Origin: a virus
Lineage: Duplodnaviria > Caudoviricetes
DNA: 64,000 nucleotides
Virus record (IMG/VR): IMGVR_UViG_3300010262_000137
Location: 1 to 64,000 of that record
Direction: 5' to 3' (one strand)
This document shows, piece by piece, positions 49,602 through 55,838 of the stretch (within the stretch, counting starts at the first letter, position 1; the number at the start of each line of letters is the position of its first letter). The notes under the pieces are model-generated. The model searched no databases. It worked only from the letters and a program-made list of their open reading frames with translations, and was not told the origin of the DNA. Made by a program: the position numbers and the translations under genes.

Positions 49602-49933
49602 TGAATGAAGCAAAGATAATCAATATGAACAAAGGAGCAAAGATTGACTATGAAATTATGGGAAATAAAATTATTTTCAATGACGAATTAATGTTGAATC
49701 TTGCTAAGTATGAGCGTGATGACCCTATGCATATTGATATATGCATGGATGAGTTTGGGTGTTTGTGTATGGGATTGGCTAACAATTATATTGCACAAAT
49801 TGATATTCCTGCTCGTGAATATGAGTTTGTTGAAGATGGTGTGGATGAAGAAGGAAAAACTAAATATAACAAGGTAGCAATTCCATTTGATATTAAAAAA
49901 GTAGTCATTACATTATGGGAGGTTGAAGAATAA
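49601..49933 (+). CDS. phage hypothetical protein
   Basis: Co-oriented, directly upstream of the DGR target. Confidence 0.55.
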   Translation: MNEAKIINMNKGAKIDYEIMGNKIIFNDELMLNLAKYERDDPMHIDICMDEFGCLCMGLANNYIAQIDIPAREYEFVEDGVDEEGKTKYNKVAIPFDIKKVVITLWEVEE

Positions 49934-51012
49934 TGGAAACAAATTTTGATGCGATCAAATTAGCAGTAGAAGCAGCTACTGGTGGAAAAAATACAGTATT
50001 ATTTGATGATTTAGGTAATCCTTCAATCATGGTTAGAATTCCTAAATTTAAAATTTCAGATGTAATCGCTGGTGGATCTAATTCTGTTCATCCTGCGTTT
50101 ATTGTAAATGGTGTAGAAAAAGATGAAATATTCATAAGTAAATATCAAAATATCGTAGTAAATGATCGAGCTTATTCTTTACCGATGCAAGATCCAAAAG
50201 CTTATATTGATTTTGATACAGCAAAAAAAGCCTGTGAAAACAAAGGTAAGGGTTGGCATCTAATGACAAACGCAGAATGGGCTGCAATTGCTTTATGGTG
50301 TAAAAAGAATGATTACTTCCCAAGAGGTAACAACAATTACGGAAGTGATGTATCTTACCCTCATGAAAAGGGTGTAGAAACATATAACTATGACGGTAAA
50401 ACTGGTAGAGTTGCTTCGGGTTCTGGGCCAGTTACATGGGCTCATGATGGTAGCAACTCAGGTATATTCGATTTAAATGGTAATGTTTGGGAATGGGTTG
50501 GAGGACTTCGTTTAGTTGATGGTGAAATCCAAGTCATCGCCGATAATAATGCAGCAAATGGTGCAGATATGACAGTGAATTCTAGTCATTGGAAAGCCAT
50601 TGATAAGAGTGGAAACTTAGTTGCTCCAAAATCAGCTAATACATTAAAGTTTGATTATACAGTAGATCCAGGTACTACAAATGTAGGAAAAGGAGTTCCA
50701 AAATTAGTAACAACTTTAACTCATCAACAAACAAGTGATGAACCATATGCAGCAGGACAATTTGAAGATATGACGGCAGATGATGGTATCACTCCACCAG
50801 AAATATTAAAGTCGTTAGCGATTTATCCTGAGGGAACAAAAGCAAATCATGGAGATTACATCTATATGAGAAATAAGGGAGAGCGTTTGCCTTTTCGTGG
50901 TGGCCTTTGGCATAACGGAAGCACTGCAGGCGTGTTCGCTTTGAATTTGCACAACCCACGCTCTTATGCTGACTATGATAGGGGTTTTCGCTCCGCTTTC
51001 GTAGGTCTGTAA
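49933..51012 (+). CDS. DGR target protein, FGE-sulfatase/C-type-lectin fold (probable receptor-binding protein)
   Basis: GWHLMTNAEWAAI, GIFDLNGNVWEW, C-terminal RGG.W...G.FA...GFRSA variable region. Confidence 0.9.
   Translation: METNFDAIKLAVEAATGGKNTVLFDDLGNPSIMVRIPKFKISDVIAGGSNSVHPAFIVNGVEKDEIFISKYQNIVVNDRAYSLPMQDPKAYIDFDTAKKACENKGKGWHLMTNAEWAAIALWCKKNDYFPRGNNNYGSDVSYPHEKGVETYNYDGKTGRVASGSGPVTWAHDGSNSGIFDLNGNVWEWVGGLRLVDGEIQVIADNNAANGADMTVNSSHWKAIDKSGNLVAPKSANTLKFDYTVDPGTTNVGKGVPKLVTTLTHQQTSDEPYAAGQFEDMTADDGITPPEILKSLAIYPEGTKANHGDYIYMRNKGERLPFRGGLWHNGSTAGVFALNLHNPRSYADYDRGFRSAFVGL
50890..50997 (+). repeat. DGR variable region (VR), 108 bp
   Basis: Colinear with three downstream repeats; encodes the last CLec strands. 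Confidence 0.92.
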
Positions 51013-51034: not shown

Positions 51035-51052
51035 TTGCCACGTGAGTGGCAA
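51035..51052 (+). promoter_or_regulatory. DGR target-recognition hairpin/cruciform candidate
   Basis: TTGCCAC-GTGA-GTGGCAA about 38 bp downstream of the VR, the position such hairpins occupy in BPP-1-type DGRs. Confidence 0.65.
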
Positions 51053-51056
51053 TCAT

Positions 51057-51090
51057 TCCCACCAGCGATTTAGCTGGTGGGATTATTTTT
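51057..51090 (+). terminator. intrinsic terminator after the target gene
   Basis: TCCCACCAGC-GATTTA-GCTGGTGGGA followed by a T-rich tract. Confidence 0.7.
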
Positions 51091-51130
51091 TTATTGTGTA
51101 AATTTTTACACATGATATAATTTACTTGAG

Positions 51131-51640
51131 GTGGTAATGATGGATAGTCAATTAGGATTGTATGAGACTCAGCTTGTCATACAGCAGGAGGTTTATGATA
51201 TGTTACTATATGCCTATCCGTTGTTAGATCATTTTCCAAAGAGTCAAAAATTCTCTTTAGTTCAAGATATCAAAAGAAGTATGGATTTAGTTCTTAAATA
51301 TGCAATTACTGCTAATAAAAAATACAGCAAGACTACAACGCTTGAAAAAATGGATGTAGAACTAGCTGCTTTAAAGGTTTATATAAGATTAGCATTTGAA
51401 TTGCATTTTTTTAAAGGCGAAAAGCACTATATGGAAATGTCTCGAAGATTAGATAAAGTCGGCAAGATGTTAGGTGGCTGGATTAAGGCTGAAAAAGAAA
51501 AATCAGGGAATAAAGCTATTGAAAAAACATATGTTTGCGAGAAATGCGGTGCAAAAATAACTCCTAAATCTTATGAATATTCAATAAGGAATTTTGGTAA
51601 ATCTCTTTGTTATGCATGTCAAAAAAGTCATAAGGATTAG
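51131..51640 (+). CDS. avd: Avd accessory protein with C-terminal zinc-finger extension
   Basis: FPKSQKFSL, LKVYIRLA, VGKMLGGWIK four-helix-bundle motifs; CEKC...CYAC tail. Confidence 0.88.
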   Translation: MVMMDSQLGLYETQLVIQQEVYDMLLYAYPLLDHFPKSQKFSLVQDIKRSMDLVLKYAITANKKYSKTTTLEKMDVELAALKVYIRLAFELHFFKGEKHYMEMSRRLDKVGKMLGGWIKAEKEKSGNKAIEKTYVCEKCGAKITPKSYEYSIRNFGKSLCYACQKSHKD

Positions 51641-51653
51641 ATGAATAGTGAGA

Positions 51654-51719
51654 ACTTTTCGTGTTGGCGTTGGATTCTGTACGCTTTGGCTCTGCTCTCC
51701 GAGAGGTTTTCGCTCCGCT
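51654..51719 (+). repeat. TR-like unit R0 (internally deleted, 66 bp)
   Basis: Keeps CTTTTCGTG 5' and AGGTTTTCGCTCCGCT 3' ends but is 42 bp shorter. Confidence 0.7.
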
Positions 51720-51761
51720 CTATTCTTTTATGCTATTTTGGGATTAGGCTATTAGCGTTTG

Positions 51762-51869
51762 CCTTTTCGTGGTGGCTCTTTCAATAATTCTAGCAATGCA
51801 GGCGTGTTCGCTTTGAATTTGAACAACCCACGCTCCAACACTTGGAACAATCTAGGTTTTCGCTCCGCT
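51762..51869 (+). repeat. template repeat R1
   Basis: 108 bp colinear with VR; 9 AAY codons. Confidence 0.9.
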
Positions 51870-51900
51870 TTATCCTTATGGGATTAGACTATTATGAAGA

Positions 51901-52008
51901 CCTTTTCGTGGTGGCGCTTTTTGGGAGCATTCGAATGCAGGCGTGTTCGAATTGAATCTGAATAACCCACGCTCTTATGCTGACAATGATAGAGGTTTTC
52001 GCTCCGCT
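51901..52008 (+). repeat. template repeat R2
   Basis: 108 bp colinear with VR; 5 AAY codons. Confidence 0.9.
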
Positions 52009-52049
52009 CTAACCCAATAAAGAGTAATGGGATTGGACTATATGAATTG

Positions 52050-52157
52050 CCTTTTCGTGGTGGCAATTGGAATAACGGAAGCAATGCAGGCGTGTTCGCT
52101 GTAAACTTGAATAACCCACGCTCCAATTCCAATCACAATGTAGGTTTTCGCTCCGCT
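52050..52157 (+). repeat. template repeat R3 (most canonical TR, adjacent to the spacer)
   Basis: 108 bp colinear with VR; 10 AAY codons. Confidence 0.92.
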
Positions 52158-52320
52158 CTGCTCTTGCAATTAGGTATATGATGGATACGTCTGTCATTTC
52201 AAATCAAGGGAATAAAGGAGTCTAATTCCATGCTGAACAAGCAAAAAAATATATAAAGATGAAAACCGATTGTAATGTTAAATGAACTCCGTTAAGCATC
52301 TTAAAAATTAGGTGATGATC

Positions 52321-53475
52321 ATGGCGAAAATAAAGAATGTATATGACTATATCGTTAGTGATGAAAACATATACAATGCTTATTTGAACGCTCGCAAAAG
52401 CAAAAGATATAGAAAAGATGTACTCATATTTACTCAAAATCTATAAGCAAATCTAGTTAAGATTCAAAATGAATTAAGAAGCGAAGTTGTTGATTATCCT
52501 AAATATAGAGAGTTCTATATTTACGAACCAAAGTGTCGCTTGATTCTTGCTCAAGACTTTCCTGAAGTGATAAAACAGTGGGCGTTTTATCAAGTTTTAA
52601 GTCCTATGTTTACTAGGATGTACATCAAGGATTCTTATGCATGCATTAAAGGAAAAGGACAAATTGCAGCAATTAAAAGGCTTCATTATTGGCTTAAATT
52701 GGTCAATAGCAAAAGATACAATAAACTGAAAAACGGTTTAGATGTATCTGATTTAAACAAGTGGTATTACTTGAAAATAGACTTTAGCAAATACTTTTAT
52801 AGAGTAGATCATAAAGTCATGATTGATGCATTGAAGAAGAAAATTAAAGATGATCGTGTTGTTAGATGGCTTGAAACACGCATAGAAAGCCCTGATATGC
52901 CTTTTGGATTACCTAAAGGCATGCGTCCTGAAGATGTTGAAATGAGTGAACGTTTATATGATAAAGGAATGCCAGTAGGCGCTTTGGTTTCACAAATGTT
53001 AGCGAATGTTTACAATGATCAGATAGATCAATATGCTAAAAGGACATTAGGAATTAAGTATTATATACGCTATCAGGATGATATTGTGGTGCTTTGCGAT
53101 GATAAGAAACAAATAAAAGAATGGCATCATAAACTAGAGAAGTTCGCAAATGATGTCATGAAAATGGAAATGAACCAAAAGACCTGTATTAGACCAATCA
53201 ATCAAGGGATAGAATTTTGTGGTTTTCGCTTATGGGCTACACATATTAAAATAAGGAAAAGCACTTCCTTGAGAATTAAAAGGAACTTAAAAGGCGTGAT
53301 GAAACGATACAATGAAGGAGATTGTACTTTAGAACACGCTACGCAAGTAGTTAATTCATATTTTGGACTGCTGAAACATTGTAATAGTTATGCATTAAAA
53401 ACTGAAATATTTGGTGATTATGAAAAAGGAATAGATGGTTGGTTTGTACTGACTAGAAATCAAGGTAACGATTAA
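52321..53475 (+). pseudogene. DGR reverse transcriptase with in-frame TAA at codon 42
   Basis: MAKIKNVYDYIVSDENIYNAYLNARKSKRYR...NL*ANL...YEPKCRLI, YLKIDFSKYF, PVGALVSQ, YIRYQDD; stop at 52444-52446. Confidence 0.88.
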
Positions 53476-53565
53476 TTTCGTTACCTTTTAATTATGTTTT
53501 AAAGTTCTTTATTTTTCGACTTTATTTATTTTATATAAAATGTGCGATGAAAGGAGGAATATATA

Positions 53566-54024: not shown

Positions 54025-55008
54025 ATGGATTGGAAAAACTTAAATGCCGATGTCAATAAAATCATGAATAAACACTATACTAAGGGGCGTTCAGGACGAA
54101 AAATTGATAAAATAATCATCCATTATAACGCAGGTGATTTAACTGCAGAAGGATGTTATTCTGTATGGCAAAACAGAGCAGCTTCGGCACACTATCAAGT
54201 TGAATCTTCAGGTCGTATTGGACAATTGGTTTGGGATGGTGATACAGCATGGCATGCTGGCAACTGGGATGCCAACTGTTCAAGTATCGGAATTGAACAT
54301 GCAAATAAAGCAGGTGGATATATTAGTGAAGCATGCTTAGATGCAGGAGCTCATTTAGTTGCAGCATTATGTAAGTATTATGGATTGGGACGTCCTAAAT
54401 GGAAGGTAAATGTATTCCCTCATAATCATTTTGCAGCTACATCTTGTCCTGGTCGATTACAGGATGAGCAAAGAGATGCTTATATGCATAAAGCTCAACA
54501 ATGGTATGATCAAATGGTGAATGGGGTTGAAACTCCATCTAAACCAAGCGAACCATCTACAGGTAAAAAAACTAATGAGGAAGTAGCAAAAGAGGTTATT
54601 GCTGGCAAATGGGGTAATGGAAATGAACGTAAGAGCAGTTTGACAAGTGCTGGATACGATTATAATGTTATTCAATCGTTAGTAAATCAAATGTTAGGAA
54701 TTCCAACGTCTGATCCAAAACCAACAAAAACTATTGATCAGTTAGCGGATGAAGTTATTGCTGGCAAATGGGGTAATGGTGAAGAACGTAAAAATCGTTT
54801 AACCAAAGCAGGATACAATTATGATGCAGTTCAAGCGAAAGTTAATCAAAAATTACATGGAGTAAACAGTAACAAGTCCAATGAAACAATCGCTAGAGAA
54901 GTTATTGCTGGCAAATGGGGTAATGGAGCTGAACGTAAGAACCGATTAACAGCTGCAGGATATAACTATGATGCCATACAAAGTATTGTGAATAGTTTGT
55001 GTAAATAA
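54025..55008 (+). CDS. N-acetylmuramoyl-L-alanine amidase with three CW_7 repeats
   Basis: IIHYNAG, SAHY, AWHAG, SIGIE, ATSCPG; three EVIAGKWGNG.ERK..LT.AGY repeats. Confidence 0.92.
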   Translation: MDWKNLNADVNKIMNKHYTKGRSGRKIDKIIIHYNAGDLTAEGCYSVWQNRAASAHYQVESSGRIGQLVWDGDTAWHAGNWDANCSSIGIEHANKAGGYISEACLDAGAHLVAALCKYYGLGRPKWKVNVFPHNHFAATSCPGRLQDEQRDAYMHKAQQWYDQMVNGVETPSKPSEPSTGKKTNEEVAKEVIAGKWGNGNERKSSLTSAGYDYNVIQSLVNQMLGIPTSDPKPTKTIDQLADEVIAGKWGNGEERKNRLTKAGYNYDAVQAKVNQKLHGVNSNKSNETIAREVIAGKWGNGAERKNRLTAAGYNYDAIQSIVNSLCK

Positions 55009-55082
55009 TTTGTAGGATAGTAGGAATGCTATCCTACTCTCCTTTTCATAGCAATGCCCTTTGTTTGAAAGGAGAGATAAAA

Positions 55083-55838
55083 ATGAATAGTTTTATACCA
55101 TGGATTGGTGGTAAAAAGTTACTTAGAAAAGAGATATTAAACAGATTTCCAAAAGAGCAACCATCTCGCTATATCGAAGTGTTTGGAGGTGCAGGGTGGG
55201 TATTATTTGCGAAGGAACAAAATAGTAAGCAATTAGAAGTATTTAACGATCTCAATGGCAATTTAATTAACCTATATAGATGTGTTAAATATCATGCTCA
55301 GGAAGTCCAAAAAGAATGTGAATTCTTATTGAATTCTAGAGAGTTATTCTTTGACTATAAAGAACAAATTGACATTAAAGGTTTGACTGATATACAAAGA
55401 GCAGCTCGTTTCCTATATATTATAAAAGTATCATTTGGAGCAGATGGTAAAACTTATGGCACAAATGCTAAGAATATTTCATATTCAATTAATATGCTTC
55501 CGATGATTAGCGAACGACTTAATAGAGTTGTTATAGAAAATAAAAGCTATGATAACCTCATTAAGGTATATGATAGAGATAATGCTCTATTTTATTTAGA
55601 TCCACCTTATTATAAGACTGAAAAGTATTATGGTAATTTGTTTGCTGAAGATGATCATATTAAATTAAGAGATATTCTAAAGGATATAAAAGGTAAATTC
55701 ATTCTATCTTATAATGATTGTGAATTTATAAGAGAGTTATATTCAGATTTTTATATTGAAGAGGTAGAAAGAAATAACAGTCTTGTAAAAGATGGTAATT
55801 CAAAATATAAAGAATTGATTATAAGAAATTACAAGTAA
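55083..55838 (+). CDS. Dam-like (D12 class) adenine methyltransferase
   Basis: PWIGGK, YIEVFGGAG, FYLDPPYY. Confidence 0.9.
   Translation: MNSFIPWIGGKKLLRKEILNRFPKEQPSRYIEVFGGAGWVLFAKEQNSKQLEVFNDLNGNLINLYRCVKYHAQEVQKECEFLLNSRELFFDYKEQIDIKGLTDIQRAARFLYIIKVSFGADGKTYGTNAKNISYSINMLPMISERLNRVVIENKSYDNLIKVYDRDNALFYLDPPYYKTEKYYGNLFAEDDHIKLRDILKDIKGKFILSYNDCEFIRELYSDFYIEEVERNNSLVKDGNSKYKELIIRNYK

Follow-up and report, generated by a model that had tools for sequence, protein, structure and literature searches.

A probable tandem library of alternative templates for one variable region in a diversity-generating retroelement of a Holdemanella prophage

What do several non-identical copies of one repeat do between the accessory gene and the reverse transcriptase gene of a diversity-generating retroelement (DGR)? 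DGRs usually have one template and one mutational alphabet, in which adenine-containing codons vary around a fixed scaffold. The question is raised by a stretch of 64,000 nucleotides (nt), referred to here as the window, which comprises positions 1 to 64,000 of the virus record IMGVR_UViG_3300010262_000137 (Caudoviricetes). A repeat search of the window identified a family of four 111-nt copies at 50887, 51759, 51898 and 52047, with spacings of 872, 139 and 149 nt. The copy at 50887 is the variable region (VR, 50887..50997; all features described here lie on the plus strand), situated at the 3' end of an open reading frame (ORF) at 49933-51012, and the other three copies, units R1, R2 and R3, lie between avd and the reverse transcriptase (RT) gene. 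The search confirmed a preliminary description, made from the letters of the sequence, of three full VR-colinear repeats in this interval with periods of 139 and 149. In place of the canonical single template region (TR) per VR, three full units and one remnant, R0, serve a single VR. The element is very probably a DGR of a Holdemanella prophage, with one VR, a tandem library of R1-R3 and a crippled R0, and a shared avd, spacer RNA and RT.

The VR was parsed against the units by dynamic programming, with a low cost for a mismatch at a template adenine, a high cost for any other mismatch and a fee for each template switch. Compared with any single unit, the window VR shows 21-26 differences, 11-17 of them at non-adenine template positions. 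Parsed as a mosaic of R3 (positions 0-32), R1 (33-76) and R2 (77-110), it retains 7 differences, and 7/7 are at a template adenine. None of the diagnostic sites in the segments (6-9 for R3, 4-7 for R1 and 10-11 for R2) carries another unit's base. The adenine-site changes number 4 in the R3 segment, 1 in the R1 segment and 2 in the R2 segment; since each segment has adenine-site changes of its own, every segment went through mutagenic reverse transcription of its own unit.

Close relatives, which come from prophages of Holdemanella and other Erysipelotrichales, were collected by RT search of IMG/VR, human-gut metagenomes and genomes, and all of them carry arrays of 2-4 units between avd and RT. 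A single unit accounts for the VR in L007 (R3, residual differences at A 8/8), in L011, the same phage as isolate L017 (R1, 7/7), and in L013 (R2, 8/8). The VR is a mosaic of R2, R1 and R2 in L012 (12/13), of R3 and R2 in L016, from the isolate Holdemanella sp. MSK.7.32 (11/11), of units 1 and 2 in L015, a Holdemanella metagenome-assembled genome (5/5), and of units 3 and 4 in L010 (9/9), which has an RT 77% identical and shares its VR with a protein of Amedibacterium intestinale. Over 8 independent loci, the window included, 67/68 residual differences fall at a template A in templates that are only ~17-23% A, and the adenine-only TR/VR differences of a DGR emerge once several templates are allowed.

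These VRs bear directly on the proposal that only R3, the unit next to the spacer, works as a template, R1, R2 and R0 being neutral tandem duplicates in decay. The template of the BPP-1 DGR directly adjoins its spacer, and units can decay, as the deleted R0 of the window illustrates. Against this proposal, the VR equals R1 with adenine-only changes in L011/L017 and R2 with adenine-only changes in L013, and R3 alone leaves 11 non-A mismatches in the window VR, for which R1 and R2 are needed. No stop codon or frameshift was found in the template units of 12 loci, and the leaders of the units, described below, stay fully paired; the proposal has very little chance of being correct. Decay of R1 and R2 had been named in the preliminary description as an outcome that would count against it, and was not seen. 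The 3' segment of the VR derives from the terminal unit in 3/8 loci, from R2 in 4/8 and from R1 in 1/8; judged by these VRs, the spacer-adjacent unit is not privileged as a template. Because for each full unit, R1, R2 or R3, there is a relative whose VR has no other template and departs from it at adenine sites only, the comparison supports R1-R3 as distinct, functional templates and not as decaying duplicates.

The same pattern was sought at the protein level. Clusters of target homologues at 90% identity have 1558, 184, 148 and 110 members, numbers that are expected because the target is hypervariable. The four closest clusters supplied 35 distinct VR peptides, whose residues were tested against the pooled R1/R2/R3 codons, allowing adenine changes only. 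One template type suffices for 15/35 peptides (5 R1, 4 R2 and 6 R3), and two or three types are needed for 20/35, in which all six ordered unit pairs occur. Residues incompatible with the templates amount to 12/1260. Named hosts of these peptides are Holdemanella porci, Eubacterium sp. TM05-53, Amedibacterium intestinale, [Clostridium] innocuum and Coprobacillus sp. These VRs and VR peptides show that every unit has served as a template, that transfer is adenine-mutagenic and that mosaics exist.

Tandem silent in-frame cassettes beside one expressed copy, together with segmental mosaics, are also what cassette gene conversion of the pilE/pilS or vlsE type would present, in which silent cassettes are copied by DNA recombination without reverse transcription. 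Faithful transfer with no base-specific signature and no RT, the mark of a recombinational cassette system, is not what was found at this locus. The differences between VR segments and their donors lie at donor adenines in 67/68 cases, a pattern characteristic of DGR reverse transcription and not expected from DNA gene conversion, and the locus includes avd, an RT and an RT-14 spacer RNA. Conversion of this type is most improbable here.

Each full unit consists of a leader followed by a template. R1 (51740..51869) has the leader GGGATTAGGCT at 51740-51750, its template at 51759-51869 and the 3' flank TTTATCC; R2 (51880..52008) has the leader GGGATTAGACT at 51880-51890, its template at 51898-52008 and the 3' flank TCTAACCC; and R3 (52029..52157), with the leader GGGATTGGACT at 52029-52039 and its template at 52047-52157, is joined straight to the spacer RNA. 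The ancestral first unit, R0 (51633..51719), has the leader AGGATTAGATG, which overlaps the stop codon of avd. The 5' and 3' blocks of R0 are 51 nt apart, against 93 nt in a full unit, and R0 is therefore a derivative with a 42-nt internal deletion, in agreement with its earlier identification as a deleted unit. R0 is full length in L011/L017, where it is adenine-poor (11 A), and in contigs of three animal-gut runs.

The translations reported earlier for R1-R3 were reproduced exactly, with no stop and no indel in the VR frame; if the bases are shuffled, all three units are stop-free with P=0.006. Adenines are concentrated in codon positions 1 and 2, AAY codons number 9 in R1, 5 in R2 and 10 in R3, and the units are stop-free, indel-free and AAY-rich in all loci. 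R3 and R1 differ at 20 positions, 14 of which are non-A positions of R3, as had been estimated. The choice of unit alters residues that are encoded without adenines (the W of the segment termed window A; AL vs AV; TW..L vs SD..R vs S.H.V), and these changes are therefore beyond the reach of adenine mutagenesis of one TR. The suggestion in the preliminary description that R1-R3 are distinct templates, forming a library that gives access to such residues, is thus supported both by the relatives with a sole template and by the mosaic VRs.

An array of similar units in a metagenome-derived virus record might also be a mis-assembly in which TR variants of co-existing strains have been strung together, and short-read contigs do break at repeats. 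Sequencing-run data consisted of Logan contigs of relatives, with at most 0.32 of the sampled words and mostly from bovine and other animal gut, and these short-read contigs break at the repeats or the VR. More than 10 independent assemblies nevertheless show the array again, its units in unchanged order at the same spacing and each slot with its specific leader; the genomes of two isolates, Holdemanella sp. MSK.7.32 and Eubacterium sp. TM05-53, are among them. Each unit also has unique flanks and linkers. The chance that the array is an assembly artefact, which the preliminary description had itself raised as an objection, is negligible, the isolate genomes carrying the same array.

The check on homologues proposed in that description showed arrays to be conserved and unit number to vary, from 2-4 in close relatives to seven in an isolate of [Clostridium] innocuum. 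In this isolate the units have a period of 146-150 nt and one spacer, and the VR copies the terminal unit with 4/4 differences at A. In other lineages of the prophage family, three units repeat every ~207 nt at two loci, and at another locus, which has several spacers, four units repeat every 275 nt. At ~45% RT identity, relatives have an ordinary single TR. No match to the locus was found in the GenBank phage collection, and no further VR-like copies were found outside the array in the 86-kb phage record, or outside the locus in three host genomes (2.3-2.6 Mb).

A different arrangement was observed in L021, with an RT 51% identical, in which the whole module of leader, TR and RT-14 spacer is triplicated with a period of 304 nt, two of the copies being identical (L021:3079-3985). 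Triplication of the whole module is a second route to a template array. The VR of L021 is not cleanly explained by the units now present, with 8 non-A residuals, and this locus was not counted as support.

If all units are templates, the mosaics could still be products of homologous recombination among phages that co-infect or reside together and whose VRs had been copied from different units, or chimeras made by an assembler from mixed VRs. The breakpoints fall in invariant blocks, where the mosaics cannot be distinguished from recombination, and phages whose VRs are purely R1, R2 or R3 circulate together in human guts. Joins of VR and R1 that may be assembler jumps also occur: in two metagenome contigs, L009 (2591-2900) and L041 (9339-9532), the target gene runs into the R1 3' flank and on into R2, with avd missing. 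Neither contig was counted, as a real VR-R1 deletion and an assembler jump through identical sequence are indistinguishable in them. Speaking against recombination and chimeras, mosaics make up 20/35 distinct VRs, and one of them, the R3, R2 mosaic of L016, is in the sole isolate genome examined for mosaics. The shared blocks are at most 20 nt long, below usual assembly k-mers. As Guo and colleagues are said to have found in 2008, BPP-1 conversions start from the VR 3' end and terminate at differing 5' positions, and conversions of this kind would yield the same pattern. An origin of the mosaics in phage recombination or chimeric assembly is considered unlikely, and carries far more weight than the three explanations discussed above.

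The units themselves also change. The R1 slot of L014 is occupied by R2 sequence with 8 changes, all at adenines (L014:756-863), that of L007 by an R2, R1 hybrid with adenine changes (L007:3317-3424), and L045 has one adenine-poor slot whose sequence matches the VR exactly (L045:6016-6123). These adenine-mutated unit copies and the VR copy indicate that mutagenised sequence sometimes enters template slots. Slot overwriting could take place by gene conversion from the VR to the slot or by homing into the slot; in the case of R1, homology with the VR extends into flanking sequence. Unequal recombination alters the number of units as well, and a fusion of R1 and R2 in L015 represents a contraction of the array.

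The array is followed by one spacer RNA (Sp, 52161..52301), which matches the Rfam family RT-14 (RF02921) with 63.5 bits, against a gathering score of 48.1, over positions 1-144 of the 144 of the model. The match lies within the 163 nt that separate R3 from RT, and relatives score 68-79 bits. There is one RT-14 match per array in the window, L010, L011 and L016, and one per unit in L021. The layout of the spacer was read from the sequence and its parts were assigned by analogy with the BPP-1 ribonucleoprotein (RNP; bioRxiv 10.1101/2023.10.23.563531). By this analogy, it would comprise an Avd-binding-like stem-loop with a UACG loop (52179-52196), an invariant TAAAGG (52213-52218) with a candidate priming A at 52216, a Stop strand, AGTCTAATTCC (52219-52229), complementary to the unit leaders, and a small stem-loop with an A-run (52232-52249), followed by a long 3' stem-loop. 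In BPP-1, the 'cPRT Stop' is built from an avd:Sp duplex of 11 bp, placed two nucleotides beyond the priming adenosine, with a stem-loop and A-minor adenosines behind it. Cis-primed reverse transcription (cPRT) requires this element, which also ends the cDNA (bioRxiv 10.1101/2023.10.23.563531).

An 11-nt leader, GGGATTRGRCT, is located 10-14 nt upstream of each template, that of R0 being the 3' end of avd. The leaders listed for full units (R0 excepted) in ten loci are paired at 11/11 positions with the single spacer site, and vary by wobble-compatible transitions only. Covariation was analysed in ten sequences from five lineages, with slid controls and 500 shuffles. The leader:spacer helix (10 bp) is paired throughout (100%) and has 4 pairs in which both sides have changed; for the Avd-binding-like stem-loop the values are 97% and 5 pairs. 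Together the two helices have 17 pairs, 98.8% paired, with changes on both sides in 9, as expected of a DGR spacer element, its function being assigned by analogy. Slid controls pair at 39-52%, and 0/500 shuffles reach the observed covariation score.

The 3' flanks of the non-terminal units show a further pattern. The first 7-8 nt after CCGC are TCTATTCC, TCTGTTCC, TCTATTTC, TTTATCC or TCTAACCC, complementary to the primer strand GGAAUAAA, and the linkers beside them vary freely in sequence and length. The flank of the VR itself has no complementarity to the primer strand. These conservation patterns are suggestive of docking between flank and primer strand. The RNA elements by which a template docks on the spacer RNA would then be present in every unit separately.

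The remaining parts of the locus are those of a DGR. The VR lies at the C-terminus of the target and ends 15 nt before the stop codon of the gene (49933..51012, 359 amino acids), whose product has an FGE-sulfatase/C-type-lectin fold (Pfam PF03781, E=1.7e-08). The gene is preceded by baseplate J and Mu Gp48-like genes (neighbours PF04865 and PF10076), and because of this position and the fold the target is likely a receptor-binding tail protein. A hairpin 40 nt 3' of the VR (51035..51052) has a 7-bp stem, TTGCCAC/GTGGCAA, and a 4-nt loop, GTGA. In 8 loci the stem is kept and the loop varies between GTGA, GTAA and GCTA (GNNA-type). No equivalent was found after any template unit, and by analogy with BPP-1 the hairpin is a candidate target-site hairpin. 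An intrinsic terminator of the target gene is predicted at 51057..51092. It is followed by a promoter-like site (51094..51121) with TTGTGT, 16 nt and TG-n-TATAAT (extended -10), read from the sequence and below the promoter-scan threshold.

The accessory gene of the locus is avd (accessory variability determinant, 51131..51640), which encodes a bAvd domain (Pfam PF22296, E=1.9e-26). Past this domain, Avd has a C-terminal extension with a zinc-ribbon-like CxxC...CxxC pattern (51530-51640), the final codons of which double as the R0 leader. The RT gene (52321..53475, 384 codons) encodes a DGR-type RT (RVT_1, PF00078, E=5.9e-15) with the YxDD motif as YQDD and the GxxxSQ motif as VGALVSQ. Its ORF is broken at codon 42, and a terminator-like hairpin is predicted at its end (53462..53487). 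No terminators were predicted between the promoter-like site and 53462.

Two observations concern the region downstream. A second tandem repeat family at 54563-54981, with 3 copies of ~113 nt at spacings of 159 and 147, represents three CW_7 cell-wall-binding repeats of an endolysin (Amidase_2 and CW_7 x3, ORF 54025-55008). Directly downstream of the lysis genes, at 55026-55838, is a gene for a D12-class N6-adenine DNA methyltransferase.

How could one spacer serve several templates? In the mechanism proposed here, a single transcript would start at the extended -10 promoter (51094-51121) and end at the terminator at 53462. Each unit on it would be a complete docking module, in which the 11-nt leader pairs with the Stop strand and the 3' flank complements the primer strand next to the candidate priming A. 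Which unit is copied would depend on the leader with which the one spacer pairs. Such a transcript of avd, array, spacer and RT, with the single spacer docking one unit at a time and downstream units looped out to give unit-length cDNA, is put at slightly less than even odds. The RNA of the chosen unit would be reverse-transcribed with errors at adenines, and the cDNA would replace all or part of the VR. The VR would in this way be diversified on three levels, namely the scaffold, the mixture of scaffolds and the substitutions at adenine sites. Mosaics would result from a series of partial conversions that share an anchor at the VR 3' end and differ in their 5' ends, or alternatively from template switching by the RT in the invariant blocks. 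Since mutagenised copies now and then replace template slots and the array grows and shrinks, the library itself evolves.

One continuous multi-unit cDNA with a single loop-out was also considered as the sole source of the mosaics. It predicts that an upstream unit supplies the 5' part of a VR and a downstream unit the 3' part. The VRs of the window (R3, R1, R2), L016 (R3, R2) and L012 (R2, R1, R2) violate this order, and this model was rejected as the sole source.

In the most far-reaching reading, the array is a template selector within one DGR RNA, in which alternative docking chooses the unit, successive partial homing recombines scaffolds, and mutagenised write-back evolves the library; we give this reading a probability of roughly 45%. 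Several points weigh against the account of the element given here. Copying of R1 or R2 would have to involve an RNP that tolerates 1-2 downstream units (149-288 nt) looped out between template and spacer. The duplex energies computed with RNAduplex for the unit 3' flanks and the primer strand do not stand out from those of composition-matched shuffles (p 0.12-0.19 per unit). The mosaic VRs of metagenome assemblies could partly be assembler chimeras, and mosaics could come from recombination between phages. Finally, present activity in this genome is doubtful, as the RT reads TAA in frame at codon 42 (52444-52446; GAA to TAA at 52444) where all relatives have GAA or GAG (Glu), and the neighbouring genes give no sign of stop-codon reassignment. 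Because of this nonsense codon, the element was probably inactivated recently and its VR is probably a frozen record of past activity, unless the TAA is a sequencing error or a minor variant.

If the selector reading is true, this locus would be a natural system that joins cassette choice, segmental shuffling and hypermutation. With a scaffold chosen from a library and shuffled, the reachable sequence space is larger by whole loops, and a parallel exists with vertebrate immune genes that combine cassette choice or gene conversion with hypermutation. The presence of many leaders and one spacer offers a testable handle on how a DGR ribonucleoprotein selects and delimits its template, and suggests how DGR mutagenesis might be engineered with one RNA that bears several programmable templates. 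Such loci would be misclassified as inactive by survey pipelines that assume a single TR for each VR and reject VRs showing non-adenine mismatches.

The preliminary description knew of no tandem multi-template DGR, and we found no published description of tandem alternative TRs for one VR in the full-text literature, subscription journals being outside its coverage. Tandem alternative templates are not described in Wu 2018 or Roux 2021, nor were they found in Yan 2019, Nimkulrat 2016 or Benler 2021. Several TRs have been reported as TR variants between strains (PMC4891356). DGR loci with multiple TRs (Yan et al. 2019, PMC6642488; Zeta crAss-like phages Lera/ct1yV3, PMC12386605) likewise have more than one TR per RT, but these are separate TR-VR pairs in which each TR has its own VR or target, whereas here all templates serve one VR. 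The Rfam family RT-14 (RF02921) is a structured RNA beside reverse-transcriptase genes, and the window spacer matches the full model above its gathering score. The model leaves UAAAGG and the Stop-strand segment unpaired, whereas the partner identified here is upstream of each template, in 3-4 alternative copies.

Like the BPP-1 DGR (mtd VR - avd - TR - spacer - brt), the window has the gene order target, avd, template, spacer and RT, a VR at the 3' end of a gene for a lectin-fold tail protein, adenine-specific differences between template and VR, and a hairpin downstream of the VR. Its spacer also resembles that of BPP-1 in the Avd-binding stem-loop, the priming-A region, the 11-bp duplex between upstream and spacer strands, the small stem-loop and the A-run (bioRxiv 10.1101/2023.10.23.563531). 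Unlike BPP-1, which has one template, three to seven non-identical alternative templates are available per VR, each with its own upstream Stop strand and with a primer-complementary 3' flank, and with one common spacer; the VRs are often mosaics of templates, and the template slots are themselves rewritten. In its logic, a library of silent cassettes that gives rise to segmental mosaics in one expression site, the locus is similar to Neisseria pilE/pilS, Borrelia vlsE and the avian immunoglobulin pseudo-V genes. It differs from these systems, and is not a member of them, in that transfer takes place by mutagenic, adenine-only reverse transcription.

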